Shown here: piece after piece, positions 2,605 through 21,326 of the stretch
Numbering within the stretch: position 1 is the first letter of the stretch
How the letters are laid out: the number at the start of each line of letters is the position of its first letter
Origin: Diplonema japonicum
Taxonomy: Eukaryota > Protista > Euglenozoa: Diplonemea
DNA: 64,000 nt
Direction of reading: 5' to 3'
Assembly: GCA_964019335.1 (NCBI GenBank)
Contig: OZ025762.1
Span: forward strand, 62,001 to 126,000
Position numbers and translations under genes: made by a program
The notes under the pieces: generated by a model
The model's input: only the letters and a program-made list of their open reading frames with translations
What the model was told of the DNA's origin: nothing
Database searches by the model: none

Positions 2605-3648
2605 ATGGCTTGCGCAGACATCGACCCGTCGGAGTTATCGGTTATACTATACCCGGAGGGGGCCCCCGCGGCGCCGGCGGACCCGGACTGTGCTGCCGGC
2701 TGCGACCGGGAGCACAAAACGGGGTTCCATTGCCCCCGATGTGGTTGCCTGGGCAACGAAGCGTGCCTCAAGCAGGTTCACAAAAGAGACGGAACGCACC
2801 TTCTAAAGGACCTGGGCTCCAGGGGTTGGATCTGCCCCCGATGTCTATGGGCGGTCCAGAAGGAGGGCGAACCTCTGGTGCTGCTGGGTTCCCCCGCTAG
2901 GGAGGAGAAACAGGCCCCCGTCCTGACGGAGGGGCTGATGGGCGCCTTCAGGGCATTCTTGAGCAGCCCGGGGGGGCTCAAGAGTCTGGGTCTCGCAGAC
3001 CAGGAGGGATCCTCCGACCCCGCAGGTCGAGGAGAAGGCCAAGCAGGCCTAGGAGGGGGCCAAGCAGGCCTGGAAGGAGGCCACGCAGGCCCAGGAGGGG
3101 GCCAAGCAGGCCTAGGAGGAGGCCACGCAGGCCTGGGAGGGGGCCAAGCAGGACTGGTGCCAGACGAGCTTCCGTACTCGGTGGACACCAGAAGAGTGAC
3201 GTTCTGGGTCGGACACGTCACACACGCCCATCTCAGACGTCAGCTCCTTGGAAACATCCGGACTCGCTACGGACCGATCCCGGAGGACGCCCGGGACACT
3301 GCGCGTGGACACGAACACGATGTTCGTAGGTTGTTCCGGTACCTGACGCAGATCTTCCCGCTCTTTGCCACGGTAGGGGAGGCCCTGTTTCCGCTGGCGC
3401 ACGATCTCATGGTCCAGCTGGAGTGTTGCCGTATCAGGGCTAAGGCTCCGGATCGCCAATCCGGCATGGAAAGGGCCTTGGTGTACGAGGAAAGGCTGGA
3501 AGGATTGGAATGGACGAAGGTTGATGGCAATGTCATCAGCGCCGCGGCTCGGCTGGCGGCGGCGGTAAAGTCGGAACCTCTTAGGTCAGAACCCTCAAAG
3601 AGACCGAATTACTTCCACGGTGGGGGTCCAAAAAAGGCGAGGCATTGA
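2605..3648 (+). CDS. gag-like ORF with N-terminal PHD-like Cys cluster and Gly-rich heptad repeats
   Basis: ATG at 2605; CAAGC...CPRCGCLGNEAC...WICPRC; GQAGLGG-type repeats; it is the first ORF of the element. Confidence 0.6.
   Translation: MACADIDPSELSVILYPEGAPAAPADPDCAAGCDREHKTGFHCPRCGCLGNEACLKQVHKRDGTHLLKDLGSRGWICPRCLWAVQKEGEPLVLLGSPAREEKQAPVLTEGLMGAFRAFLSSPGGLKSLGLADQEGSSDPAGRGEGQAGLGGGQAGLEGGHAGPGGGQAGLGGGHAGLGGGQAGLVPDELPYSVDTRRVTFWVGHVTHAHLRRQLLGNIRTRYGPIPEDARDTARGHEHDVRRLFRYLTQIFPLFATVGEALFPLAHDLMVQLECCRIRAKAPDRQSGMERALVYEERLEGLEWTKVDGNVISAAARLAAAVKSEPLRSEPSKRPNYFHGGGPKKARH
3037..3156 (+). repeat. 21-bp coding tandem repeat, ~5.7 copies, encoding G(Q/H)AG(L/P)(G/E)G
   Basis: GGCCAAGCAGGCCTAGGAGGG and variants in tandem. 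Confidence 0.9.
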
Positions 3649-5282
3649 CAGCTGACTCATCCACCATCCCTAACTCGTATCAATCAGAACAGTACTTCTC
3701 TAGCTCCCGTCAACGGTTCCCTCCCCCCGCTCGCTCCTCTTTTTCATTTATCAAAAACGTTTCTCACTCCCTCTGCGACTCCGAAAGGTCGGCCGCGATT
3801 AAACGACTATTCGATCGCGAAGGAGGAAGTGGGACCCCTACTACTGCAAACGCAAGAGTTCATGGGGACTTGCTACAAATCTCAAGACTCGGTGGTCTCG
3901 GTCCTTCGCAGGGGCCGGCAATTCGCGGAGCAGGTACGCAGATGGCATCCGACGATATCGGAGGAGGAGGCCTTCCTGCTATGGATAGAAAGGAAACGCA
4001 GTGCGGGGCAGATTTCCGCTTCCTCCGCACTACAGTACATGACTTACTGGCGGATGGGTCAGGTCGGCCCGACGGCAGCCTATCGTCGTTCCCTCCAAGG
4101 GAGACTGGAGGTTTTCAACCATCGCCTAGAAAGCCAGAGGATTCTGGTGTCACGGGAGCAGGTGCTCAGTGTGATCTCGTCCCCGCAGGACATGTTGACG
4201 GCTGCCCTGTCCTTGCAATGGAGCACGGCCGGTCGGTTCGTGGACGTAGAACGTCTTCTAATAGGGCACGTGTTCCCCCGCCCCGGGGAGACCTTGATCA
4301 TGCTGGTTGGCGGGAAGACCGACCGACAAGGGAAGGGTCAGGGGGTCGTGGTCCCGTCGGACGGAAACCTATTCGGGCCTGCGAAGCGGTGGATCGAAGG
4401 AAGGAAGCGGTCGGCTACACCGGACCGAAGGGTCTTCCCAACGATATCCCGCGTAGCGTACAACCGTTTCCTGATGAAGAGCTTAAACGTCACGGCTCAC
4501 GACATAAGACATGCGGCGTTGACTCACGTGGCGCGACGTCTGGGGGAAGGAGCGGCCCAGAGCATGGCTCGACACGCAGAGGCGTCTACAACGAGGTTAT
4601 ATATACCTCCCGAGACGTGGCAGGCGTCGGCGGAGACACGGGCGGGAGGCGCCAGCCTGCAGTGAGGTCTCAGCCGGCGGTGCCGCGTTGGCCGGTCAGC
4701 TTGACGGACGTGTTCAGAACCTATGATTATGTGGAGTCGTGGCTGGAGCTGGGTTCGAGTGTGCGGCTGCCGAAGGCGGCGTACATCGGTGAGGTCGACA
4801 GAATACCCACCTCCACGATCGACACGGATGGCTTGTTGCTCAGGTTCCCGAGGCTGGAGGGTTCTCTACGATGGTGGACGGACGTCCATTTCCTTAGAAG
4901 CGTGGTGAAGCAGTCCTTTAGGAAGTCTCCGGGTCCCCCTAACGAAAAGCTACGACCCCACGCACGTTCCCTCTGGATGATGGGTTTGACCGAGCCGTCA
5001 ACGAGGACCTCCGCCCCGTGGTATCACTCCGCGTTCACTGTCCCGAAGAAGGATCCCTCGAGGCTGCGCTTTATCCTTGCCTGCACGGACTTCAACAACG
5101 CTACTTTGGACGTGCCTCTGCCCAGCTGCAACCTGCCCGCATACCGGGACATCATCGCCGATCTAATGAGCTGCGAGTACTGCGCAGAGTACGATTTCCG
5201 CTCCTTTTTCTTCCAGTTCGGTTTACCGGAGGCGGTTAGGCCGTTCTTTTCCTTCCGAATCCGAGGCGCGGGGGACGACATG
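3645..5282 (+). CDS. Long ORF overlapping the YR gene and ending in an N-terminal reverse transcriptase domain; 3'-partial at the gap
   Basis: SAFTVPKKDPSRLRFILACTDFN and EYDFRSFFFQFGLPEAVRPFFSFR match the first LTR/DIRS-type RT motifs. Ns begin at 5283. Confidence 0.75.
3649..4665 (+). CDS. Tyrosine recombinase (start uncertain; frame is open from the gag stop codon)
   Basis: Catalytic signature: R (TAGRFVDV), K (GGKTD), HxxR (AHDIRH), H (MARH), Y (TTRLYIP). Confidence 0.85.
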   Translation, partial: QLTHPPSLTRINQNSTSLAPVNGSLPPLAPLFHLSKTFLTPSATPKGRPRLNDYSIAKEEVGPLLLQTQEFMGTCYKSQDSVVSVLRRGRQFAEQVRRWHPTISEEEAFLLWIERKRSAGQISASSALQYMTYWRMGQVGPTAAYRRSLQGRLEVFNHRLESQRILVSREQVLSVISSPQDMLTAALSLQWSTAGRFVDVERLLIGHVFPRPGETLIMLVGGKTDRQGKGQGVVVPSDGNLFGPAKRWIEGRKRSATPDRRVFPTISRVAYNRFLMKSLNVTAHDIRHAALTHVARRLGEGAAQSMARHAEASTTRLYIPPETWQASAETRAGGASLQ

Positions 5283-5482: not shown

Positions 5483-5605
5483 GGTTTGCGGGTTTGCGGG
5501 TTTGCGGGTTTGCGGGTTTGCGGGTTTGCGGGTTTGCGGGTTTGCGGGTTTGCGGGTTTGCGGGTTTGCGGGTTTGCGGGTTGGGTTTGCGGGTTTGCGG
5601 GTTTG
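5483..5605. repeat. (GGGTTTGC)n octamer tandem repeat, ~15 copies, at the gap edge
   Basis: Direct reading; one unit is shortened near 5578. Confidence 0.95.
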
Positions 5606-5634
5606 TTGGGGCGACCCCGGGATCAGCCCCGTCT

Positions 5635-5683
<49 letters not shown>

Positions 5684-5754
5684 AAGAAAAGAAAAATAAA
5701 AAGAAAATAAAAGATATATGAATTGAAGGGAGTCTTTGTGAGACGCTTTTTTAA

Positions 5755-6158
5755 GGGGGACTTGAGAAAATAAATAAAAAGGGGGACTTGAGAAAATAAA
5801 TAAAAAGGGGGACTTGAGAAAATAAATAAAAAGGGGGACTTGAGAAAATAAATAAAAAGGGGGACTTGAGAAAATAAATAAAAAGGGGGACTTGAGAAAA
5901 TAAATAAAAAGGGGGACTTGAGAAAATAAATAAAAAGGGGGACTTGAGAAAATAAATAAAAAGGGGGACTTGAGAAAATAAATAAAAAGGGGGACTTGAG
6001 AAAATAAATAAAAAGGGGGACTTGAGAAAATAAATAAAAAGGGGGACTTGAGAAAATAAATAAAAAGGGGGACTTGAGAAAATAAATAAAAAGGGGGACT
6101 TGAGAAAATAAATAAAAAGGGGGACTTGAGAAAATAAATAAAAAGGGGGACTTGAGAA
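5755..6158. repeat. 26-bp perfect tandem repeat GGGGGACTTGAGAAAATAAATAAAAA, 15.5 copies
   Basis: Unit starts at 5755, 5781, 5807 ... 6145 (390 = 15 x 26). No spacers. Confidence 0.95.
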
Positions 6159-6343
6159 TGTTTTTTTTTTTTTTTTTTTCTTCAAAAGACACACAAGGCA
6201 CGATAAATCTTAAGAGAAAATAAAAATATTCCAAAACAGACAATCAAGTTCCAACCTGGGAGGAAGGCATGGGTTTCTCTTTTTCTTTATGGGAGGGAGA
6301 GGGGAAGAAGAAGAAGCAACTCCAAATGATAAAAATTCAAAAA

Positions 6344-6395
6344 TAAAAATCTCAAAAAAGGCTTAAAAGAAGAAGAGGCAAATTCAAAAACATAC
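6344..6395. repeat. 52-bp direct repeat, left copy (candidate target-site duplication)
   Basis: TAAAAATCTCAAAAAAGGCTTAAAAGAAGAAGAGGCAAATTCAAAAACATAC, identical to 17160-17211. Confidence 0.9.
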
Positions 6396-6846: not shown

Positions 6847-9800
6847 CTATCTGGCCAGCGAGCCTTTGGACCTCTTCTTGTGGGGTATGGGCCCCACCCG
6901 TGCCCTCCCCGACTCGAGCTGCAGCCAAGCCACCGCACTGTTCACCGGGGCCCAGTTCTCCTTGTTGCGCACCTTGACCGTGTCCCGCACCAGGTCGTCG
7001 CTCCCCAGCTCTTCCATCAACCTGTGCTCCGCCAAGAACTTGAACTGGGGCCCGGTCATCCCCTTGAGCTCACCCCTGCATATGTTGGCTTCGACCACGG
7101 TGCCATCCGCCCCCGTACCCTTCAGATAGATGTAGCCACCCTCCACACAATCCGAGTCAGTACTGGCCGATCGGGCCCGGGCCCGCTTCTTGTCCTTCTT
7201 GCTCCACTTCAGCTCTTCCAGGGTGGGGAGGTCCGTGGCAACCACCTCAGGCCGCCTCTCCCTGTCTTCCTCCTTCTTCCGGGCCAACAGCCCAAGGTAC
7301 CTCTCAAAGGAGACGTCCTCGAACAACCCCGGGACCGTCACCACCGCTGACTGCAGGTCGACCTCTTCAACACCCATCTTCCGCAGATGGTCCTGGACAG
7401 TGCGCCTCGTCTCCTTCTCGCAGGGCCCCCTCCCCTCGTAGACGTCGAGGGTGACCTTCCTTCCATCCCTCACCCACGCCTTCACTTTGATCAGGTCCTT
7501 GACCTTTCCCACTGGGGCCCTTATCCTTGCGTCGCACCTCTCCAAGAACTCACGTAGTGTCACCTTGGTAGCGCCGGCTCCCGCCGCAATGCCCACTACC
7601 CCTTCCTTCCCCGGTGTCGGGTGGTGTCTGCACCCCCGGGTCTGCAACTTGACCACCCTCCATGCCGTTTCCAGAGTCCCCTTGAGCACGCCACCCTTGA
7701 AACGAACAGGTTGCACCGCCGAACACCCACACGCGTACGTGATCTGGAAATCCTGGACCGTCCTCGGGAACTCGAACTCGCGGTATGTTTCCGACTTCTG
7801 CACCTCACAACCCACAATGCGGCTGCGGCGCTCTCCGTCCGACCCACCTTCCAAGCTTGCGAAGTACTGCTTTACCATCATGTATCCAAGTCCAGCGATA
7901 CCAATCTGGCCAGCCATAGCCACCTCCAGTGGAACACCCAGCGACTCGGCCTTCGCAAGAAGCATCTCCTCAGTCCTCTCCCTTCCAGGGTCCGTTCCTT
8001 CTTCAAGGATGATCTCCACCCGGCCCTCGAACTGGATGATGAACTTGAGCAGTCGGTCCCCCGGCCTCGCCCTCAGTGGCACCATCGCTCTCGGAATTGG
8101 GATGCCCATCACCACATCAATCGGGTCAAGCTGAACGAAGTCTCCCCCTACTTCCACCTGCTGTTCCCTTTCCGGTGCCCCGACTCCCATCAGCTGATCT
8201 CCCTCCGGCGTCTGGATCCCACCCCTAGGTGTGTCAGGCCCCGACTGGCTGCCTCCGCTCGGTGCGTTCCCGCCCTCTTTGGTCCCTTCGGGGGCGTCAT
8301 CCGCCTGCGGCTTCAGAGTCCTCCCACCGCCCTGTCTCTTCGCAGCTTGTTCCCTACAGAATTCGCTCACGGTCATCTTCCTCGTAGCAGTTGTCGCACT
8401 CTGGTCCCCCTTGTTCGAGTCCCTCTGGGCCTCCGTATCCCCCTTAGGACACTGGTCCAAGGTCTGGTTCACCGCAGCGTCAGTCGCCCCTTGTCTCTTC
8501 CCATCTTCCTGGGCCTTCGGGTCAAGCTCCCCTCCCTGCCCAGCCCTCTCGCTGGATCCTGTTCCGACCATCTCCGTGTCTTCTCCTCCCGGCGAGGCTG
8601 CTTCGAGTCCTGCTCCCGCTTTCCCTTGTGTTCCACCCTCCACCGGTTCCGCCTTTCGCTGCTGCTGCATTCGGGCGTCCAGGTCCTTCTTCGTCTGCTC
8701 CAGAAGGGCATCCAGCTGGTGGGCCACCGTGATTGGGGGTCCGCCTCCCTGTCCCTTCACTTCCCTCTCGGACGACTCCTCAGCTTCGGTGGTTTTTTCA
8801 TTGCCGAAGGAGTCCTCTGTGAGGTCAGTGTTGGATTCAGTGTTGGGTTCGTTGTTCGCTTCCTCGTTGTCCTTTTTTTCCTCTTCGCCGTCCGGTACCG
8901 GGGGCCCTGGATCCAACTGTACAGGCCCTTTGACTAACAGCGCCCCTGCTATCGATCTCATCATGGCCGTTGACACCTCTTGGACCACACGCCTGTGTAT
9001 CGAGACTCTGTCCCCGTGAGCCCGCGCAGCTATGCTCCTGGACAGTTTCTTCGTGAGGTAGACTGCTGCCTCCCCGAACCCCCCAAAGGTCTCCATCGCG
9101 AAAGGTACAAAGGCCACGCGTGTCTTGGCGAGCTCCGCCTCATACTTCTGGCGCTTGTAGTGTTCCGCCTTCGCCGCTGCGTATCCCGCAGTCTTCGCCG
9201 CCTGGTTGACACAAGACTCGTTCCTCGGGTGCACGATGACCACGTCCATAGCCATTGGGCGGGAACCCCCCACCCCACCTGGGAAGAACACGTCCGCCGG
9301 GCGCTGGGACGACCCCGGGATCAGCCCCGTCTTCTCCATCGTTGCGCTCACCCCGGCCCACTGACAGTGTCTGTGGATGGTCTCCTTCACCCGGTCGTGC
9401 CTCGCAATCCTGGCGTTGCCGCATCCCTGGGCATGGTCACCCCATACGTCCATCCCCTCAGTCTTGCACCTCGGGTCGTGGCAGCTCTCACCCTGCTTGT
9501 AGACCGGAGCCCCCAACCACCACTTGATCAGAGCCCCAAACTCGTTGTCCGACAGCTGGTTGTAGAAGTCAGGCGTCGCCGTCAACCACGCTCCCGCATA
9601 GTGCATTGACTCCGACATCAACCTCGCTCTCGAGCGTGCATCTGCTTTCGCCAAGAGGTCCTCCAGCGCCTTCTCATCAAGCACCCTAGAGAGCCACCTC
9701 TGGCTGCAGATGTGGGGGGCCTTGGCCACCATGTCGGGTGTAATCTGCATGCCGCCCTTCGTCCTGTTGAACCACTCGAGCCAGCTCCCCCATACACCCC

Positions 9801-11120
9801 CTTCCAGCCCATGTTCGTATTTGGGATCCAGCTCCTTGCACAGCTTCATCGTCGACGCCCTCGAAGCCATGTTGGCCGCGCGCAGGTGCTCCTGGCAGCT
9901 CCTCATCCCAAGCCCACCGACTTTTACGGACAGTTTCGCCTGCTGCCATTCTTTCGACCCGTTCTCGAACTGCATGCCGCACACCTTCGACATCGTCTTC
10001 CGCACCATCTCGTCGAACCTGTGCATGACCCCTCCCACATGCGAGTCTGGGACCACTCTCATGTAAAACACCAGTTTGCTGTATGAGCTGCAATACCGGA
10101 GAAGTGTGTACCCTGTCTGCCTCCCCACCTTGGTCAGCATGTCGAAGTTCTCTTCCAGCGCGTCCAAGCGTTTGTTCAGAAAGGCTTGCGTGTACTCCGG
10201 CGATCCTATCGGCGCCCCCAGGAGCATGAAGTTCCTCTCTTTGTGGAAATTCTCTTCTGTCAGGCCATCGAAGCCTGTGTCCTCCACTGTCTGGGGGAGG
10301 TCGCCACTAACCCATATGAGCTCGCACTTCTGGGGTTTCACTTTCAGCCCTATCATTCCGCTCAGCTCACACAAGATGTTGTACGCCTTTCTCACTTCAT
10401 CCACATTCCCCACAAGGACGCCATCGTCCAGGTAGAACTGGAGGATGTCCAGGTTGCAGTCTTCACTTATCTTGTTCACCAGGGGTTGGATGGCCAGAGA
10501 GAACAGCAGCGGTCCCATCGGGTCCCCCTGTTGCACCCCTTCCTGGGACTTAATCACCTTTCCGTTGTAGTATAATTGGGAGGGCACCCTGTAGCACCAA
10601 TCGGCCCACGCATACAGCCCCGACGCTTGCTCATAGGCCTGTGAGCACAGCTGCCTCCGACAAACACTGTTGAAGGCGTTGGCGTAGTCGATCTTGAGGA
10701 TCACCTTGTTTTCCTGCTTGTTGCCCCGTTCCCTGTCCACATACTGCCTGATGGTGTGTATAGCCGCCTCCATTCCAGCAGGGACCGATACCCCCACCTG
10801 GCCGCCTTTCTTCAGGTACGAAGAGGCCACTTCCGGAGCGATCTTCTTCACAAGGGATTTCCCCACCAGCCGACGCAGCACATCCCCAACGGCTATGGGC
10901 CGCACGTCCCTGTCGTTCTTCTTGAGGGCCACAAGGTTCGCCCCTGCCATCAGCGGAGCCACCTCCCTAGGGGCCGTGCCTCTAGCTAATGCGTTGACTG
11001 CCCTCGTCACCGACATCAAACAGCCTTGAGACTCAAAAGCTCCGTCCACCGCGTCCTTGATGTGCTGGGCTCTCAGACCAGTCGGTCCCGCAGCAGTCCC
11101 CCTCGGGAAGTCCCTGATTG
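6847..11120 (-). CDS. Retroelement polyprotein, C-terminal part: RT, CCHC, restriction-like endonuclease and ~690-aa extension
   Basis: ORF track 6847..11217. The first ~32 aa of that ORF are an out-of-frame product of the duplication junction at 11121-11124. Confidence 0.85.
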
Positions 11121-12841
11121 CGTCTTCTCCATCGTTGCGCCCACCCCGGCCCACTGACAGTGTCTGTGGATGGTCTCCTTCACCCGGTCGTGCCTCGCAA
11201 TCCTGGCGTTGCCGCATCCCTGGGCATGGTCACCCCATACGTCCATCCCCTCAGTCTTGCACCTCGGGTCGTGGCAGCTCTCACCCTGCTTGTAGACCGG
11301 AGCCCCCAACCACCACTTGATCAGAGCCCCAAACTCGTTGTCCGACAGCTGGTTGTAGAAGTCAGGCGTCGCTGTCAACCACGCTCCCGCATAGTGCATT
11401 GACTCCGACATCAACCTCGCTCTCGAGCGTGCATCTGCTTTCGCCAAGAGGTCCTCCAGCGCCTTCTCATCAAGCACCCTAGAGAGCCACCTCTGGCTGC
11501 AGATGTGGGGGGCCTTGGCCACCATGTCGGGTGTAATCTGCATGCCGCCCTTCGTCCTGTTGAACCACTCGAGCCAGCTCCCCCATACACCCCCTTCCAG
11601 CCCATGTTCGTATTTGGGATCCAGCTCCTTGCACAGCTTCATCGTCGACGCCCTCGAAGCCATGTTGGCCGCGCGCAGGTGCTCCTGGCAGCTCCTCATC
11701 CCAAGCCCACCGACTTTTACGGACAGTTTCGCCTGCTGCCATTCTTTCGACCCGTTCTCGAACTGCATGCCGCACACCTTCGACATCGTCTTCCGCACCA
11801 TCTCGTCGAACCTGTGCATGACCCCTCCCACATGCGAGTCTGGGACCACTCTCATGTAAAACACCAGTTTGCTGTATGAGCTGCAATACCGGAGAAGTGT
11901 GTACCCTGTCTGCCTCCCCACCTTGGTCAGCATGTCGAAGTTCTCTTCCAGCGCGTCCAAGCGTTTGTTCAGAAAGGCTTGCGTGTACTCCGGCGATCCT
12001 CCACTGTCTGGGGGAGGTCGCCACTAACCCATATGAGCTCGCACTTCTGGGGTTTCACTTTCAGCCCTATCATTCCGCTCAGCTCACACAAGATGTTGTA
12101 CGCCTTTCTCACTTCATCCACATTCCCCACAAGGACGCCATCGTCCAGGTAGAACTGGAGGATGTCCAGGTTGCAGTCTTCACTTATCTTGTTCACCAGG
12201 GGTTGGATGGCCAGAGAGAACAGCAGCGGTCCCATCGGGTCCCCCTGTTGCACCCCTTCCTGGGACTTAATCACCTTTCCGTTGTAGTATAATTGGGAGG
12301 GCACCCTGTAGCACCAATCGGCCCACGCATACAGCCCCGACGCTTGCTCATAGGCCTGTGAGCACAGCTGCCTCCGACAAACACTGTTGAAGGCGTTGGC
12401 GTAGTCGATCTTGAGGATCACCTTGTTTTCCTGCTTGTTGCCCCGTTCCCTGTCCACATACTGCCTGATGGTGTGTATAGCCGCCTCCATTCCAGCAGGG
12501 ACCGATACCCCCACCTGGCCGCCTTTCTTCAGGTACGAAGAGGCCACTTCCGGAGCGATCTTCTTCACAAGGGATTTCCCCACCAGCCGACGCAGCACAT
12601 CCCCAACGGCTATGGGCCGCACGTCCCTGTCGTTCTTCTTGAGGGCCACAAGGTTCGCCCCTGCCATCAGCGGAGCCACCTCCCTAGGGGCCGTGCCTCT
12701 AGCTAATGCGTTGACTGCCCTCGTCACCGACATCAAACAGCCTTGAGACTCAAAAGCTCCGTCCACCGCGTCCTTGATGTGCTGGGCTCTCAGACCAGTC
12801 GGTCCCGCAGCAGTCCCCCTCGGGAAGTCCCTGATTGCGTC
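11121..12841 (-). pseudogene. Tandem duplicate of 9328-11124 (RT/thumb region) carrying a 76-bp deletion
   Basis: The offset between copies is 1793 bp before and 1717 bp after the deletion junction at ~11997-12000. ORFs 11073..11960 and 11969..12982 repeat the peptides of the 6847..11217 ORF. Confidence 0.9.
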
Positions 12842-12864: not shown

Positions 12865-15800
12865 CTACCGCTTCCTTCGTCTTCGCCGGGTTGTCCCATT
12901 GGGGGTGTAGTGGCTCTGGATGTTTGCTCTGCAGCGGGCTACAAGCGCCGCGTTTCCTGCCGAGAACCTCCCTTTGCTGCACAGTTCCGTGGCCCTGGCG
13001 ACCTTAGAGACCTCGTCGTTCTTAGGTTCCCCCTTCTCACCTGATTCCAGCTTATTCCAGAGGGCCATGTAATTTCCCTTCTCCCACTCCTCCAATCTGG
13101 CCTGGACACTCAGCTCCGTCTCCTTGTCCCGCTTCTTCCCTCCCCTCTTCTTCCACAGGCAGGCTTTGGGGAGCATCGCCACCAGCAGCCAAGCCTCCTC
13201 TGTGTTGTCCTTCACCGCTCGGCCCAGAGTGTGCTTAAGGGTAAGCCCCCACAGTCTTTGAAGGCTCGTCGGGATCGACCCCATGGTCGTGACGTTCATG
13301 GCGGCTATGGTTTCCAGGCTGGGTAACTCGGTCCTCGTCGGGGCCGGCGGGGGGGTCGTGTATTCCCCTTCCCTTCGCACCGCCTTTTTGCACTCGTCGT
13401 GGCACCCCTGACCCTTCCACACACAGCCCCTGCACACCAGGCACCTCTCGAGGTCCAGTCTCCTCAGAACGCTCTCCGGGATCTCATCACTCTCCAGGTG
13501 CCCATCCAGGTGACACTTCCATACCCTTGTCGAGTTGAACGGGGTCGTGCTTTTGCACTTCGACCTAGCGCAGTTCGCCACCGGACAGTACAGGAATTGC
13601 TGGTTCCTTGCCCCCATCTGGTCCAACACCCCTGCCTTCCCGTATCCAGGGATCGCACGGTCTATTATGTCCCACTCCCCGATGTCCTCACCCGGGGCCT
13701 CGGAGGGTTGCTTACCTGCCTTTTGTAGAGCTACCGATTGGGACTCATCAAGGAGCATCATCATCGACTCCTCCTCTCCGACTGCATACTCGTAGTGGTT
13801 GCCGTTGTACGCCAGCACCACCACCTTCTCGTGGTCGGAGTTGTACTCCCCTATCATCAGGACTGGGTTGTTCCCCCCAGCAACCACGAGTATCGTGCGG
13901 CCAAACGCTTGTGCTGCGGCTGCCAGGCACAAGTGGTCTCCCCACGTCGCTGCTGTGCCCATCCCTTCCAAGTACCGGTCCCAACCCTCACTGCAAAACG
14001 GGGCATAGTGCTCCTCCCGGTGTTTCATCCATTCTACAACCTCGCTCCTGATGTGGGTGTGGTCGCCGTAGGCTTCCCCGAGCGAACCGGCCAGGGCGTG
14101 GAACATGCAGTTCCCGTCCTTCTCCGTCGATCTCCTCGTCAGCTTGAAGCTCTTCATGATCTCGTCCACTGACTTGCCGGCCCTGGGTTGTTTGTCGGGG
14201 TTCCACAGATTCCGCTGCCTGTGTAGTGCACAGTGCGTCTGGTTCGACGAGCACGCCGCAGCACACGTTCCACAGAGGTTCACCTTCATGCTCCTCGCCT
14301 GCTCTTGTTTCACAAAATGATGGTGGACCGCATTGAGGTGTTTAACTAGACAGCTTGCCACACTGGTGCGGAAAGAGCAGTCTTCCATCCGGCATTGATG
14401 TTTGTCTGATCCTTCTTTTTCCCCCTCCTTCTGCGCCTCCATGTGCTCATCATCCAAATCCATGGGGGGAGGGTCACCACCTCCTTGCAACGCGTCCCCT
14501 GCCAGCGTCAAGTCCGCAAAGGGGTCCAGGTGTTCGGCCTGAAAGAGCTTATCCTCCGTCTCAGCTCGTTCCTTCGCCGCTTGCTTGGCGTCCTCCTTCT
14601 TTTTTCTGCGTCTTGAGCTTCTAGGCGGGCCCAAGTACACCGGCCGGTAGTGACCTCTCGATCCGCGTCTTGTCTTCTTCAGCTTTACCGGTCCGAATCT
14701 CTGGGTCGGGCCAGCACCAGCTTTCCCCACCATCACTTCCACCATGGCCCAGAGCGACATCAGCCCCCCTATCCAAACTGAAGTGCTTCCCACCAGAGTG
14801 CCCCCTACCGCTAGCCAAGCGAGCTCCCCGGCGGACCATTCATCCCCTCGGGGCCCCACCTGTACCCTTGACCTGCGGGTGGTCCTCCTGTCGCTCCCCG
14901 GCCTCTTCCACAACACTGCCGCATGCAGGAAGGAGGGGGCCATCCCGATGCCCGCCCCCAGCACCTGCCTCACCCCTGGGATCAGCAAGAGGGAGAACAG
15001 GGCGACCCAGGCCCACGCCCCCAGGTGCTCCCATCTCACCCCTTCCTTGCTGTGTCCCGTCCGTCTGCGGTGCCTCCTTGTGCCGGTTGCAGCCCCAGGT
15101 GCCGGGATTCTGGGTGCCAGGGGTTGGGCTCCAGGCGTTCCCACCTCGGTCCGCTTCAGCCCCATTGCAGGGTCATCTGGCTTCTGTTCCAGGGCGGCCT
15201 CGTGTTCCTCTCTGCGGGCCCTCCTCCTCCCTTCTTTCCTCGCACGACGGTGCCTTTTCTTCTCCTGTCTGGCAGCCTCCCTCGCCCCCTCCCTCGCCTT
15301 GGTCCTCTTCTCCCGACGCCTCTGAAGGGCCGTTTCGCTCCTGTGCCTCCTCCTGTTCTTCTTCCGCTTGGGCGCTGGCTTAGGTTCCCTGCCACCCATG
15401 GCAATCCAGGGGGCTCTTTTCTGTCTTCTCACAAGGGTGTGCAGTGGTGCTCTCACGTCGCTCGCAGCCTCCGCCCCAACCACACCTTGGCGGGCGGTGG
15501 GGGTGGGTGCTGGGTCCCCCTGGTTGTTTGAAAAGAAAAAAGGTTCCTCCTTGTTTGTTTTTTTTTTTTCTTTCCCTTCCACCCTCAAAAAAAGCCCCCG
15601 GCCCTTGGGGACCAGGGTGTACACCTCCGTAGAGGGTCCAGAAAAAATGGGGGGCAGAGAGGGAGGGGCACTACCTTCTCTCGGGCGTGCTGTCTCTCCC
15701 TCTGCCTTTTTTTCCTCCGAAGAGGGTCTGTTTTTCACCTCCGTGGAGGGTCCCTCTGGAGAGGGCTCTATAAAAGAAAAAGGGGGGGACGAATGGGGGG

Positions 15801-16947
15801 GAGGAGCACCACCCTCTCTCGGGAGTGCCACCTCTTCCCCTTTCTCTCTATTTTCCTCCGAAGAGGGTCTGTTTTCCTCCGAAGAGGGTTCTAAAAAAAA
15901 AAGGGGGGCGGGTGGGGCACTATCCTCTCTTGGGAGTGCCACCCCCCCTTGCCCACAAAAAAGGGGATCTAAAAAAGGGGGTTCGTCTGTTAACCCAGGG
16001 GATGGGTCTTCCTGGGGTGTGCGGGTGAGCTTGGGGCCTACCGCACGCAGGGTGATCGACACCCTGACACCAGTGGACATCCCGGACGGGATGTGGTGCG
16101 TCCATTGGTGTCTCGCTTCACCTTCCAACAATGCCCATGAGAAGGGGGGCACCAGGTATTTCGCCACCCTGTCCCCCCTCCTCATGACCATTGTGGTCTC
16201 GGCTCCGTACGAGAGGACTAGGACAATCGGTCCCAGCCTCGCGTCGTCCTTGTGGGCGGCAATCCCACAACCAGACTTGTACTTGTTGACAAGTACCTGG
16301 TTGGGGACCACCTCGAGCCCTGCGGCGGCGGCCACCTCCCTCACCCACCCCTCCGCCCCCCCTGGGATCCCCGTGGTGGGGCGCACCTTGGCGTTCGTCC
16401 CCTCCCACCGGTACCCGTATTGGAGGGTCTCCCTCCCTGAGTTCCCAGACAGGGCCTCCCACTTTCCTGAAAGCAGGGCTTTCGGGAAGGCAGGGGCCGG
16501 GCCCGTCCTCAACCCGGGAGGGTGTTCACCATACACCAGTACCCACCCCTTTTTTTCTCCCTCTTTTCTTCCCTCTTCAACAATAGCAGGGTCGGCTGCA
16601 GGGGTCGTGGTCGCGGCGGTCGTGGCTGCGGCAGGGGCGGCTGCGGCGGTCTCAGTTGCGGCGATCAGGGCGGCAGGGTCGGCTGCGGCGTTCAGGGCGG
16701 CTGGGGCGGCCGTGGCTGTAGCAGCGGCGGTCAAAACCGCGGTCTCTGCTAGTGATTTTTTTATTTTATTTTTTTTTTCTAAAGGGGGGTGGGGGGATCT
16801 AGGGGGTGGGGGTGGGGATTCATACTGCCCAACCAGATAGTCTGGTTGGGTCGGCCCTGGCGTCGTGTGCAGCCTGGCGGCCTGTCGGGGTTCCTTCTCC
16901 CTGCGGTTTGCGCGGTCACCTCCTCTTGCGTTCCGTCTTGGATCCAT
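12865..16947 (-). CDS. Retroelement polyprotein, N-terminal part: AlkB-like dioxygenase, hydrophobic segments, Zn fingers, OTU-like protease; frameshifted from RT near 12940
   Basis: AlkB: NQVLVNKY..GIAAHKD..WTHHI..RVSITLR. OTU: DGNCMFHAL..WGD..NHY. C2H2-like CRMEDC..HLNAVHH. The pre-RT motif RATELCSKGRFSAGNAAL continues in another frame as LQSKHP. Confidence 0.85.
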   Translation of the reverse strand: MDPRRNARGGDRANRREKEPRQAARLHTTPGPTQPDYLVGQYESPPPPPRSPHPPLEKKNKIKKSLAETAVLTAAATATAAPAALNAAADPAALIAATETAAAAPAAATTAATTTPAADPAIVEEGRKEGEKKGWVLVYGEHPPGLRTGPAPAFPKALLSGKWEALSGNSGRETLQYGYRWEGTNAKVRPTTGIPGGAEGWVREVAAAAGLEVVPNQVLVNKYKSGCGIAAHKDDARLGPIVLVLSYGAETTMVMRRGDRVAKYLVPPFSWALLEGEARHQWTHHIPSGMSTGVRVSITLRAVGPKLTRTPQEDPSPGLTDEPPFLDPLFCGQGGVALPREDSAPPAPLFFLEPSSEENRPSSEENREKGEEVALPREGGAPPPHSSPPFSFIEPSPEGPSTEVKNRPSSEEKKAEGETARPREGSAPPSLPPIFSGPSTEVYTLVPKGRGLFLRVEGKEKKKTNKEEPFFFSNNQGDPAPTPTARQGVVGAEAASDVRAPLHTLVRRQKRAPWIAMGGREPKPAPKRKKNRRRHRSETALQRRREKRTKAREGAREAARQEKKRHRRARKEGRRRARREEHEAALEQKPDDPAMGLKRTEVGTPGAQPLAPRIPAPGAATGTRRHRRRTGHSKEGVRWEHLGAWAWVALFSLLLIPGVRQVLGAGIGMAPSFLHAAVLWKRPGSDRRTTRRSRVQVGPRGDEWSAGELAWLAVGGTLVGSTSVWIGGLMSLWAMVEVMVGKAGAGPTQRFGPVKLKKTRRGSRGHYRPVYLGPPRSSRRRKKKEDAKQAAKERAETEDKLFQAEHLDPFADLTLAGDALQGGGDPPPMDLDDEHMEAQKEGEKEGSDKHQCRMEDCSFRTSVASCLVKHLNAVHHHFVKQEQARSMKVNLCGTCAAACSSNQTHCALHRQRNLWNPDKQPRAGKSVDEIMKSFKLTRRSTEKDGNCMFHALAGSLGEAYGDHTHIRSEVVEWMKHREEHYAPFCSEGWDRYLEGMGTAATWGDHLCLAAAAQAFGRTILVVAGGNNPVLMIGEYNSDHEKVVVLAYNGNHYEYAVGEEESMMMLLDESQSVALQKAGKQPSEAPGEDIGEWDIIDRAIPGYGKAGVLDQMGARNQQFLYCPVANCARSKCKSTTPFNSTRVWKCHLDGHLESDEIPESVLRRLDLERCLVCRGCVWKGQGCHDECKKAVRREGEYTTPPPAPTRTELPSLETIAAMNVTTMGSIPTSLQRLWGLTLKHTLGRAVKDNTEEAWLLVAMLPKACLWKKRGGKKRDKETELSVQARLEEWEKGNYMALWNKLESGEKGEPKNDEVSKVARATELCSKGRFSAGNAALVARCRANIQSHYTPNGTTRRRRRKR

Positions 16948-17119
16948 TTTTTATTTTTTTTATTTTTTTTTAAAGTGTGTGTTGGGGGAGGGGATCCTTT
17001 CGGTAAGCGGCGGGCAGGCCGACAGGCAAAACAACCCCCCCGGACGACGGCGACGACGGACGACGGACGCAGCAGCAAACCCAGGCAGAGGCGGCAGGCA
17101 CCAGCAGAACACGAACGAC

Positions 17120-17158
17120 CAATAAAGTACAGAAACTGTAGCTTTAGAATCGTTGGTT
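17120..17158 (-). ncRNA. Spliced-leader (mini-exon) sequence, 39 nt, forming the 5' end of the retroelement
   Basis: The minus strand reads AACCAACGATTCTAAAGCTACAGTTTCTGTACTTTATTG. The 39-nt length and the 3' half CAGTTTCTGTACTTTATTG match kinetoplastid/diplonemid SL exons, and the AACCAACG start resembles the diplonemid SL as I recall it. Confidence 0.92.
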
Positions 17159-17159
17159 T

Positions 17160-17211
17160 TAAAAATCTCAAAAAAGGCTTAAAAGAAGAAGAGGCAAATT
17201 CAAAAACATAC
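17160..17211. repeat. 52-bp direct repeat, right copy (candidate target-site duplication)
   Basis: Identical to 6344-6395; it begins 1 nt beyond SL position +1. Confidence 0.9.
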
Positions 17212-18629: not shown

Positions 18630-20480
18630 CTAAACGACTGTCAATGGGCACCTTGATCGTTGACTCCCGTGCATGTCTCTCTGTCCCGCAGGAGCATAAC
18701 TCATTCGTGTGTAGAAGGGTAAGCCATGACCGATGCTCAAGTAATGCGGATCACATACAGGACTTGAAGTGCCATCCCGCAGTTCCATTGTCTGACCTGT
18801 ATTACTAACTGAAATGACCTTCATGTCAGGGATCACCTTTAGCTCAATATCCCCATCGCCATTGTCAGGAATGACAGCTTTGTAGGTTTCGTACTTCGGA
18901 AAAAGGCACGCAAAGTGGGTGAGCTCCTCAAAAAGATCCCGCCGCGTCTCGCTTGCATCGTCGTAGACACCGATGTAGGTGCTGATGATGATGTGCAGAA
19001 CCACATCCACGAACACCACCTTCGACACAAACATCCCTGCCAGCGTCTTCGTGATCAGCCTCGCAACGTACAACGGGGTCAGCAAGTTCTTCACCACCGC
19101 CACCCCCTGTGCCTTCAGAGCTATCAGATGGTCAGCCATGTAAATGCCCATTACAAGAAACCCAAGGCCAAGTACCTGCAGGACTGCAGCGACACGTGCA
19201 ATCCGTGTCATCAGCAAGTATGCCTCCTCACGTGTCACCGCCCGAAGCAGCTGTTCAGAGTACACCAAGAACAACCCCATGCTGGCGGTGATGAGGACAG
19301 CCGTGACCATCACAGGAACCGTCCCCACCACCACAAGAAGAAGGGCCATGACGCACATCACAATGGGAAGTGCCGAGGCCTGCAAGATGATCAGCATCCA
19401 CGAGGTCACACGGACACCAGGGAACATCAGCTTCGACATCTTCAAACCGCCCTGAAGACCAAGCATCAGGCCCAGAACACCAGGGGCAAGTGACTTCAGT
19501 GCTTCTACAGCACCCACGAGGAAGGGGAGGTAGATGATGTATCTCAAGAGGAGGCCCACAAAAGTCAGTACGAACTGGGACAACGATGTATCCCCACTGG
19601 CGGTGTCAATGAGCTGGAGACTGCCCGTTACTGTGCTCGTCATGTCTTCAATGTGCTCGCTGCACACTTCCTTGACATCCACAGTCTTACCGTCAAGCTG
19701 CAGCTCAACTCCGATGACGGCGTAGACCTTGTTGATGACCTTGAGGCTGTACATGCACAAACCCTGGACCTTCTCCTTGGGGGAGACGATGTCCATCCAG
19801 GGGACGAAGAAGTAGATGAAAGGGAGGAAGAAGACAAGGAACCAGCCGAAGGAGACAAGGCGGATGCTTCGTGTATATGATGACCACCTCCAGGCGGAGG
19901 CGGAGTAGAAGACGATGGCGATGATGGTTTGAACAAATGGGAGGAACTGAAGCAGCTGCTCCTTGGCCCTTTCCCTCATTTGATACGAGTCATCCGAGAC
20001 ATTGCTCTTTTCAGCTGCTACACCGAAGGCATCCTCGTTGTTCAAAGTTACGATGTCAATGACAAGGACTATCAGGTAGAGAAGCACGCTGGTGTTAAGC
20101 TGCGACCGCCGCCAGGCGAGGTACGTCTGTGAGATAAGAGGAATATCTGTGCCAAATACAGCAGCCGTCATGTCGTACTCAGAAGTCTCAACGATCACCT
20201 CGCTAAGATCTGTCTTCATGAGCCTGCTGGGTCTGGGCACCTGTAACTTTAGATTGTCTAAGAAAGCTGCAGGGTAGAGAGTTCCATTGAAGTAGCACAG
20301 ATACACCAGCAGCGTGGTAACACCAATCAGGAAAACTCCTAGAAAGATGTAACCAAGATACGACAGCGCGGCCTTATCGATATAAATATCTGGTGTGGGT
20401 GTTGTCTCCTGCTGTGCAGCCCCCAAGCCCGCGAACAAGCACACCACTACAACAATCACGTCCCACGGCGCAATGCGCAT
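18630..20480 (-). CDS. Multipass membrane protein, unnamed family, copy 1 (616 aa)
   Basis: Signal peptide, many hydrophobic helices, family motifs YLAWRRSQLN and GLQGGLKMSKLMFPG; upstream TTTTCCAG acceptor 7 nt before the ATG. Confidence 0.9.
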   Translation of the reverse strand: MRIAPWDVIVVVVCLFAGLGAAQQETTPTPDIYIDKAALSYLGYIFLGVFLIGVTTLLVYLCYFNGTLYPAAFLDNLKLQVPRPSRLMKTDLSEVIVETSEYDMTAAVFGTDIPLISQTYLAWRRSQLNTSVLLYLIVLVIDIVTLNNEDAFGVAAEKSNVSDDSYQMRERAKEQLLQFLPFVQTIIAIVFYSASAWRWSSYTRSIRLVSFGWFLVFFLPFIYFFVPWMDIVSPKEKVQGLCMYSLKVINKVYAVIGVELQLDGKTVDVKEVCSEHIEDMTSTVTGSLQLIDTASGDTSLSQFVLTFVGLLLRYIIYLPFLVGAVEALKSLAPGVLGLMLGLQGGLKMSKLMFPGVRVTSWMLIILQASALPIVMCVMALLLVVVGTVPVMVTAVLITASMGLFLVYSEQLLRAVTREEAYLLMTRIARVAAVLQVLGLGFLVMGIYMADHLIALKAQGVAVVKNLLTPLYVARLITKTLAGMFVSKVVFVDVVLHIIISTYIGVYDDASETRRDLFEELTHFACLFPKYETYKAVIPDNGDGDIELKVIPDMKVISVSNTGQTMELRDGTSSPVCDPHYLSIGHGLPFYTRMSYAPAGQRDMHGSQRSRCPLTVV

Positions 20481-21326
20481 GTTGTAACTGGAAAATGGTT
20501 AAAATCAAGAAATAAGATAATAGAAAGTACGTTTGAAAGCGTCATAAGAAAAAAGACGAAGAACCAAAAGGCTATATCTCCACCACCTCGAATACCCTCC
20601 TCTCCTAAATCGTGCTGTCGCTACGTTTAATCGCCTTGCGGAGAAAAACGTCGACAGGTCAAAAATAGGAGAAATACAAGAGAAAACAACGAGGGGGCTA
20701 AGATGAAACCAGGGAAAACAAACATGACAAGACGGAGCGGGGCTTACGTCTTCGTTTCTTTTTTCTTTTAATCCTTTTTTAAATCTCATTTCTTCTTCTT
20801 TTCTTTTTTTGAGTCGTTTTCTTCTTTCTCCCTCCCCTCACCTGCTTCTTCTTTTCTTTCTTTTTCACTTCTCTTCTTTTTCAACTCCCGTTCGAACCCA
20901 TCTCCCTGCTGTCGCAGCAGACGAAAAACATGGAAAAGGAAAGATTGGAACGGAAAGAACAAGGAGAACATTAAAGGAGCACATGCAAAGTGCCTTTTCC
21001 AAAAAAAGGAAGAAGAAAAGGGGGGAGGAAAAAAGAAAAAGGAGTTACGACAGAGGGTAAGAAAAGAAACAATAAAGAGAGAGAGAGAGAGACGGGAAAA
21101 GGGAGAAGGAGAGTAGGGAGGAAGTCAGCGTCTTATTAAAGCAAGATTCATTTTCTCGTGGAAGTGAACCCAAAGAGAAAAAGAGGGCAACAAACACAAA
21201 AAATATTCCGACTTTTTCGATTCCAAAACCACGAAGCACAAACAAGAATGAGAAAGAATCAGTTTTCTTTTTTTAAAACTACCCTTCCTTCTTACCACCC
21301 CCCTCCAGTGAAACGTGATCTCTTCT

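Follow-up and report, generated by a model that had tools for sequence, protein, structure and literature searches.

A predicted ALKBH8-type AlkB domain opens the polyprotein of a CRE/SLACS-like non-LTR retrotransposon in Diplonema japonicum

The window analyzed here, a stretch of 64,000 nucleotides from Diplonema japonicum (contig OZ025762.1, positions 62,001 to 126,000 of the forward strand), contains a 10.8-kb CRE/SLACS-like retrotransposon without long terminal repeats (non-LTR) whose polyprotein begins with an AlkB-family 2-oxoglutarate (2OG)-Fe(II) dioxygenase domain. The iron- and 2OG-binding residues of this domain are intact, the domain recurs in related elements of Diplonema papillatum, and the family is under purifying selection. 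The features of the element are listed below from its 5' end to its 3' end.

17160..17211, minus: 5' copy of the target-site duplication, T-rich and not spliced-leader sequence, 100% identical to 6344-6395
17120..17158, minus: complete 39-nt exon of spliced-leader type at the 5' end of the element, shared with contigs of sequencing runs X2, X9 and X13
12865..16947, minus: first part of the polyprotein open reading frame (ORF), protein P0001, starting at ATG 16947, the first one downstream of the leader, by ORF calling
16036..16533, minus: AlkB-family 2OG-Fe(II) dioxygenase domain of predicted ALKBH8 type, residues about 140-305, by Pfam, alignment and model
16434-16411, minus: RETLQYGY motif at residue 173 of P0001, by motif scan
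same frame, minus: NQVLVNKY motif at residue 217, by motif scan
same frame, minus: AHKD motif (HxD) at residue 232, by motif scan
same frame, minus: WTHHI motif (distal His) at residue 283, by motif scan
16065-16045, minus: RVSITLR motif at residue 296, by motif scan
15643..15943, minus: imperfect internal repeats (68% identity) in a low-complexity linker, by self-comparison
15031..15375, minus: Arg/Lys-rich region (40 Lys plus Arg in 115 residues; 36 in 100 in D. papillatum), by composition
14731..15027, minus: hydrophobic stretches, at the same place in the D. papillatum proteins, by hydropathy
14479..14490, minus: LxGG motif (residues 821-824), then G/A-D/E-P, by comparison with the D. papillatum proteins P0155 and P0154
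14206..14394, minus: Cys/His zinc-finger region, read from the sequence and aligning with P0155 and P0154
13801..14118, minus: OTU cysteine protease with catalytic Cys and His present (PF02338, E 3.2e-12, residues 945-1050)
12930..12940, minus: frameshift near 12936; at this point a contig of run X1 carries 37 additional letters (2662 against 2625 bases)
11125..12841, minus: internal duplication that takes in the reverse transcriptase (RT) and a portion of the endonuclease region, its joints showing short microhomologies (880 bp with 99.8% identity, 845 bp with 100%)
10312..10923, with a second copy at 12032-12640, minus: RT (PF00078, E 1e-16 and 2e-17)
8920..9483, minus: CCHC finger and restriction-like endonuclease motifs, by motif scan, 35% identical to P0155
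6396..6846, minus: 3' untranslated region (UTR), U-rich, without poly(A) at junction 6396; the 3' junction is also in run X9
6344..6395, minus: 3' copy of the target-site duplication, by repeat comparison

The element is bounded by a perfect 52-bp target-site duplication (6344-6395 = 17160-17211, 100% identity) that encloses 10,764 bases. Neither the duplication nor either flank is leader sequence, and within the window a leader motif occurs solely at the 5' end of the element. Loose contig ends, at first taken for an empty site, are more readily explained by the 3' junction of the element itself. P0001 is encoded by the minus-strand frame 16950-12865 (1,361 residues); the first ATG after the leader exon, at 16947, lies in the AlkB frame, which continues into OTU, and AlkB thus stands at the N terminus of the retroelement, where the first-pass annotation of this DNA had placed it. 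The 520-codon linker behind AlkB is open throughout, and because 0 of 500 block shuffles retained a frame so long, its openness is beyond chance. Within it, the Arg/Lys-rich region is a candidate RNA-binding arm and the hydrophobic stretches (best 19-residue hydropathy 1.68, compared with 2.32 in P0155 and 1.69 in P0154) are a possible membrane anchor. The OTU domain matches OTUD5/OTUD3, with its Cys and His invariant in all three aligned rows, and the solved structures closest to the RT are R2 proteins (E 2e-7). The layout is that of the CRE group, with zinc fingers upstream, then RT, then a CCHC finger and restriction-like endonuclease, and without an apurinic/apyrimidinic endonuclease; one of the seven motif patterns failed to match P0002 as written. 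Beyond the endonuclease, about 690 in-frame residues (7000-8900, minus) have no Pfam match, and a long tail is likewise present in D. papillatum.

The window copy itself is broken by the frameshift and the internal duplication. The frameshift near 12936 separates the AlkB-OTU frame from RT, and frame arithmetic shows that the 37 extra letters of the X1 contig bring the two in frame; by coordinate arithmetic, an undamaged copy has a single ORF of about 2,800 residues. The 1.7-kb internal duplication represents either a rearranged copy or an assembly error.

All five AlkB motifs named in the first-pass annotation were found in the single frame that encodes P0001, between 16434 and 16045. Pfam PF13532 (2OG-FeII_Oxy_2) matched residues 169-302 (E 1.5e-13; score 51.8 bits, cut-off 31.2). 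Intact residues in the domain are N222, Y224, H233, D235, H285, R296 and R302, of which H233, D235 and H285 form the HxD...H iron triad of the family, and N222, Y224, R296 and R302 are its 2OG-binding NxY and RxxxxxR residues. When the domain was aligned with 105 relatives (106 rows), the columns of Y224, H233, D235 and H285 were invariant and those of N222, R296 and R302 were at least 90% conserved. Together, the scan and the alignment confirm that the iron- and 2OG-binding residues are intact, as had been claimed. The AlphaFold model of the domain has a mean predicted local distance difference test score of 87.9, with lower values (52-75) in the first 30 residues, and contains both the double-stranded beta-helix and the recognition lid. 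The hairpins of the lid are modeled with high confidence, and the lid motif is kept in both species. A Foldseek search of the PDB with this model returned ALKBH6 as the best match (E 7.6e-13), and the listed matches are all of the AlkB family; the predicted fold of the domain is that of AlkB.

A search of 1.84 billion representatives with the AlkB domain gave 1,421 hits, the best of them 37% identical and none at E 1e-30. Three D. papillatum proteins are among the best 150 of these hits, and the cluster of one includes proteins that NCBI names SLACS. According to Pfam, P0155 (2,635 residues) and P0156 of D. papillatum carry AlkB, OTU and RT in one chain. The order common to these elements and that of the window is AlkB, basic/hydrophobic linker, zinc finger, OTU, RT and endonuclease in one ORF. 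Identity to P0155 is 39.6% over the AlkB core (z 19.6), 26% over OTU (26-34% across the D. papillatum elements), 35% over the endonuclease and 50% over RT; the linker is unalignable, scoring no higher against P0155 than shuffles do (z 0.6). The NxY, HxD, WxH and RxSxTxR motifs are intact in all nine element-type proteins scanned, most of which are near-identical copies. These results argue against a recent capture of a host gene by this copy alone, the outcome that the first-pass annotation had named as fatal to its proposal, since AlkB is common to D. papillatum elements and is conserved above OTU.

Other searches were less productive. A word-based search with a two-row AlkB profile returned seven proteins, five from D. 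papillatum and two unrelated (730-743 residues), and word-based searches with the AlkB domain (longer proteins) and with residues 830-1330 gave no match, though relatives exist. None of 50 pattern matches in viral contigs was confirmed, and none of the 13 loci from a metagenome scan with RT (2-6.5 kb, 26-42% identical) had AlkB, most of them being too short upstream to tell. Among the D. papillatum proteins, P0154 has the same AlkB half as P0155 joined to another linker, zinc finger and OTU (52% identical), a mosaic that indicates that modules were swapped between subfamilies. Variant contigs in runs X9 and X13 likewise diverge in just the first half of AlkB. At the end of an unrelated long gene model, P0165 (residues 1339-1430) carries a divergent stretch of element-type AlkB whose motifs are intact, and P0164 appears to join a TATE/DIRS-like protein to an AlkB element piece.

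A 4.3-kb stretch was detected in 19 of the 24 sequencing runs listed, from 12 studies, and contigs of eight runs were compared; run X14 matches just 68 bases of it. With the window as common reference and only the best-supported differences counted, the ratio of nonsynonymous to synonymous polymorphism (pN/pS) was 0.33 for the X8 contig (16 of 18 differences), 0.15 for the X18 contig (13 of 15; one listed change outside the domain was dropped) and 0.22 for the X9 contig (24 of 55), and the pooled value for the three variant stretches was 0.22 (binomial p 8e-8). Two more X9 changes beyond the diverged half, one synonymous and the other R302H, were left out of this count. These data show that purifying selection acts on the family even though individual copies decay, which is to be expected. 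Neutral decay of the domain, which the first-pass annotation had likewise held to be fatal, is contradicted by this ratio and by the nine intact sets of motifs. That AlkB is a neutral passenger from a host gene is scarcely credible and largely refuted: damaging changes do occur in some copies, but the pN/pS of about 0.22, the better conservation of AlkB than of OTU across two species with an unalignable linker, and a best hit of just 37% among 1,421, with none at E 1e-30, all speak against it. In two quick trees, which join long branches, the element AlkBs form one group (SH-aLRT, the approximate likelihood-ratio test support, 78 with 152 rows and 91 with 33 rows), and neither tree gives a supported grouping for the AlkB donor. 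Giant-virus proteins top the viral fold search, and plant-virus AlkBs rank lower.

We compared the domain with solved members of the family by using a profile of two element AlkBs. ALKBH8 ranked first (E 3e-15), followed by Ofd2 of Schizosaccharomyces pombe (7e-10), ALKBH3, ALKBH2 and ALKBH6 (~1e-7), NMAD-1 (1e-6), ALKBH5 (4e-4) and Escherichia coli AlkB (~0.02). On sequence grounds the domain is assigned to the ALKBH8 type, with ALKBH8 as its closest solved relative, a placement on which two further comparisons agree. It is not closest to AlkB/ALKBH2/ALKBH3 (20.9 bits with the NCBIfam AlkB equivalog, against a cut-off of 267) or to ALKBH5, whose fold score is near the others. This label leaves the substrate unfixed because the Foldseek ranking differs and its scores are close. 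All four purified ALKBH8-type proteins repaired etheno adducts in DNA and two of the four repaired 3-methylcytosine (m3C) in DNA, whereas 1-methyladenine (m1A) was repaired by just the mimivirus protein, and very weakly (PMC4051686). The m1A/m3C substrate on RNA that the first-pass annotation had proposed, like an m6A (N6-methyladenosine) one, is therefore weaker than stated: by tested stand-alone members of this type, m1A is barely repaired and RNA is not. Two close AlkB relatives from metagenome contigs, P0084 and P0090, are fused to mRNA cap guanine-N7 methyltransferase and FtsJ-like methyltransferase domains.

The proximity to ALKBH8 raises the possibility that the domain hydroxylates the tRNA wobble uridine as true ALKBH8 does, tuning translation of the element. 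NCBI names P0013 and P0020 after the tRNA enzyme, and a stand-alone Tetrahymena ALKBH8 has weak tRNA activity (PMC4051686). However, Pfam finds neither the RNA recognition motif (RRM) nor the methyltransferase of full ALKBH8 in P0001, while it finds both in the ascidian ALKBH8 P0076; human ALKBH8 requires its RRM, and bacterial and mimivirus members leave tRNA unmodified (PMC4051686). We regard a tRNA substrate as very improbable.

The fold comparison points elsewhere: third place goes to NMAD-1, titled in the PDB as a demethylase of DNA N6-methyladenine (6mA), and fourth place to ALKBH5. The AlkB domain might erase host regulatory methyl marks, either m6A carried by element RNA or 6mA in DNA, and counter silencing together with the OTU deubiquitinase. 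The AlkB of an orchid Gypsy element demethylates m6A RNA in vitro (PMC9289625), and 5-methylcytosine, base J and RNA interference machinery are present in D. papillatum (PMC10161547). Nevertheless, the orchid enzyme is an ALKBH5 capture of another lineage, and ALKBH5 is distant from the element AlkBs by sequence (E 4e-4 compared with 3e-15 for ALKBH8), which leaves erasure of host marks unlikely. Quite unlikely, in our view, is that the domain hydroxylates or demethylates protein, either histone or the Arg/Lys-rich arm of the element itself, acting with OTU on chromatin at the insertion site. Such a role would accord with ALKBH6 as the best fold match and with Ofd2, which reportedly has a histone substrate, as the second-best solved relative. 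Protein substrates are known for ALKBH1 and ALKBH4 (PMC4051686). Against this, the recognition-lid motif is kept in both species and confidently modeled, and the putative cut described below, together with the hydrophobic stretches, would put AlkB away from chromatin.

The sole LxGG of P0001 (residue 821) lies 32 residues ahead of the first zinc finger. The only LxGG of P0155 (residue 921) and one of the three in P0154 (residue 1005) lie 15 and 38 residues before the zinc finger, respectively. Three lineages, with 26-52% identity between their OTU domains, keep LxGG-G/A-D/E-P within an otherwise unalignable linker. Coronavirus PLpro cleaves its own polyprotein at LXGG, the ubiquitin tail (PMC7464072). 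The conserved position suggests that LxGG is a candidate OTU self-cleavage site, at which the AlkB-bearing third of the protein could be freed.

We tentatively favor, at just short of an even chance, a reading in which the intact AlkB acts in cis by oxidative removal of alkyl adducts from the RNA or single-stranded cDNA of the element. Starting from the observed domain, its catalytic residues, its position in the element, its conservation and the purifying selection on it, we infer the following steps. Translation of the leader-capped element RNA would start at its first ATG and yield a single protein of ~2,800 residues. OTU would then cut at LxGG, freeing an N-terminal piece of ~820 residues with AlkB, the Arg-rich arm and the hydrophobic stretches from a zinc finger-OTU-RT-endonuclease remainder. 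The Arg-rich arm may keep AlkB on the ribonucleoprotein of the element, where it would clear lesions that block RT, with etheno adducts or m3C-type methyls more likely than m1A. A larger share of full-length insertions would result.

Several observations weigh against this cis-acting repair. A cut at LxGG would part AlkB from RT, which fits action on nascent cDNA less well, and in the four runs examined no single contig bridges AlkB to RT. Foldseek puts ALKBH6, NMAD-1 and ALKBH5 over ALKBH8, with close scores. No ALKBH8 protein was able to rescue methylated RNA phage, and knockout of an Agrobacterium ALKBH8-type gene gave no damage phenotype (PMC4051686); repair may not be the real job of these proteins. 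Individual copies carry R302H at the last catalytic arginine (X9 contig), N222K (a minor X8 contig) and a 29-base deletion (another X18 contig). Finally, the three pN/pS comparisons share one reference and draw on best-supported differences, and the grouping of element AlkBs on long branches may be false.

We next considered the 5' end of the element. The leader exon, which presumably is a diplonemid spliced leader given its resemblance, has a single additional A on its 5' side (17159) and GT directly after it (17119-17118). Contigs in three runs (X2, X9 and X13) match 17118-17158 and then diverge to either side, the pattern expected of a separate leader gene. An Rfam scan returned two weak, chance-level matches and no spliced-leader family, and the opening letters of the leader had no match in the published papers searched. 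The match to the separate leader-gene contigs extends two bases beyond the exon, through GT (17117-17119), which reflects either chance (1 in 16) after trans-splicing or a 5' end derived from leader RNA or its gene by template switching. There is no AG acceptor ahead of the leader junction in the window copy.

These ends bear on an earlier speculation that AlkB demethylates the cap nucleotides of the spliced leader so that RT copies the leader to +1, an explanation that we consider improbable. Cap 4 methylation stalls RT in trypanosomes (PMC6173450), the element starts at leader +1, and two 5'-UTR variants in run X1 both continue into the leader exon. However, the block to RT is partial, the evidence comes from one insertion, which is too few, and +1 and +2 are A residues beside the one extra A, so that untemplated addition could mimic copying to +1. 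Ribose methyls are not removed by AlkB chemistry. Four cap 4 methyls are on ribose, and leader position 4 is C, compared with the U that bears 3-methyluridine in cap 4 (PMC11735809).

Among known systems, the CRE clade (SLACS, CZAR, CRE1 and CRE2; PMC12278014) likewise combines one ORF containing zinc fingers, RT and restriction-like endonuclease with internal repeats and a long target duplication. The D. papillatum relatives carry the SLACS name from NCBI. Kinetoplastid CRE elements target spliced-leader genes and generally have a 3' poly(A) tail (PMC12278014); compared with SLACS, CZAR and CRE1, the window copy has a non-leader target, a whole leader exon at its start, no poly(A), and additional AlkB and OTU domains. 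The words AlkB, OTU and protease are absent from the main text of that paper. The Ty3/Gypsy (Ogre/Tat) element of Phalaenopsis likewise keeps a catalytically complete AlkB beside an Arg/Lys-rich region, but it is an LTR element with AlkB in a separate ORF, a recent capture of an ALKBH5-type m6A demethylase (PMC9289625). The present domain, known from sequence, differs in belonging to a non-LTR element, in being in frame with OTU and RT, in its ALKBH8-type assignment and in occurring in two diverged hosts. Stand-alone ALKBH8-type oxygenases of bacteria, protozoa and mimivirus (PMC4051686) are the closest characterized group, with the same lid and core motifs and no RRM or methyltransferase; they are free-standing genes, whereas the AlkB of the window is fused into a retroelement and lies on a long branch. 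Ubiquitin-family proteases are also found in the NeSL and Utopia non-LTR elements, as Ulp1 (PMC4640811), and in Ginger1 and Helitron transposons, as OTU, which is proposed to act on host ubiquitin (PMC2836005), in contrast to the candidate LxGG site in the element's own protein here.

As in the element, flexivirus and closterovirus replicases carry AlkB and then OTU upstream of the polymerase in one polyprotein (PMC544882), although these are RNA viruses with an RNA-dependent RNA polymerase. The likeness is most simply taken as convergent. An extension of this comparison, which we judge unlikely, is that the whole design converged on that of plant RNA virus replicases: OTU would cut the protein at a ubiquitin-tail mimic and release a membrane-anchored, RNA-binding AlkB that rewrites base methylation on the leader-capped element RNA, which would then be copied to its first nucleotide and escape host marking.

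We found no published report of AlkB in a non-LTR element in a search to which Repbase and the subscription literature were external. The available portions of the Utopia paper (PMC4640811) and of a giant-transposon review (PMC6431247) do not mention AlkB, and the D. papillatum genome paper (PMC10161547), in its available portions, describes SLACS models as well as a dozen AlkB genes but draws no connection between the two. AlkB has already been described from orchid Gypsy elements and from plant RNA viruses; its occurrence in a non-LTR element is real, conserved and probably undescribed. Accessory enzymes are rarely kept by non-LTR elements, and retention in two diverged protist hosts points to a selective pressure, from RNA damage or host methyl marks, on retrotransposons of the oldest type. 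Stand-alone ALKBH8-type oxygenases, whose natural role is unsettled, gain a context with a measurable outcome, retrotransposition, and with the LxGG site, self-processing of a non-LTR polyprotein becomes open to a direct test. There is also an annotation trap: the D. papillatum element proteins bear the name of tRNA methyltransferases in the database, and the number of AlkB genes credited to the host may be too high as a result.

Elsewhere in the window, nine paralogous membrane-protein-like ORFs of 490-650 residues (53-91% identical) lie at 18630-20498 and 35378-59098 on the minus strand, without a convincing Pfam family. Overlapping plus-strand frames at 3585-5282 have weak matches to tyrosine recombinase (E 0.0086) and RT (E 0.004), consistent with a TATE/DIRS-like element cut by an N gap. 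Past this gap of 200 N, the region 5483-6160 combines tandem repeats of 8 bp and 27 bp (the latter an array) with a long run of T, and 31 bp of it (5607-5637) are identical to 9305-9335 in the endonuclease region of the element; it is possibly an assembly joint.

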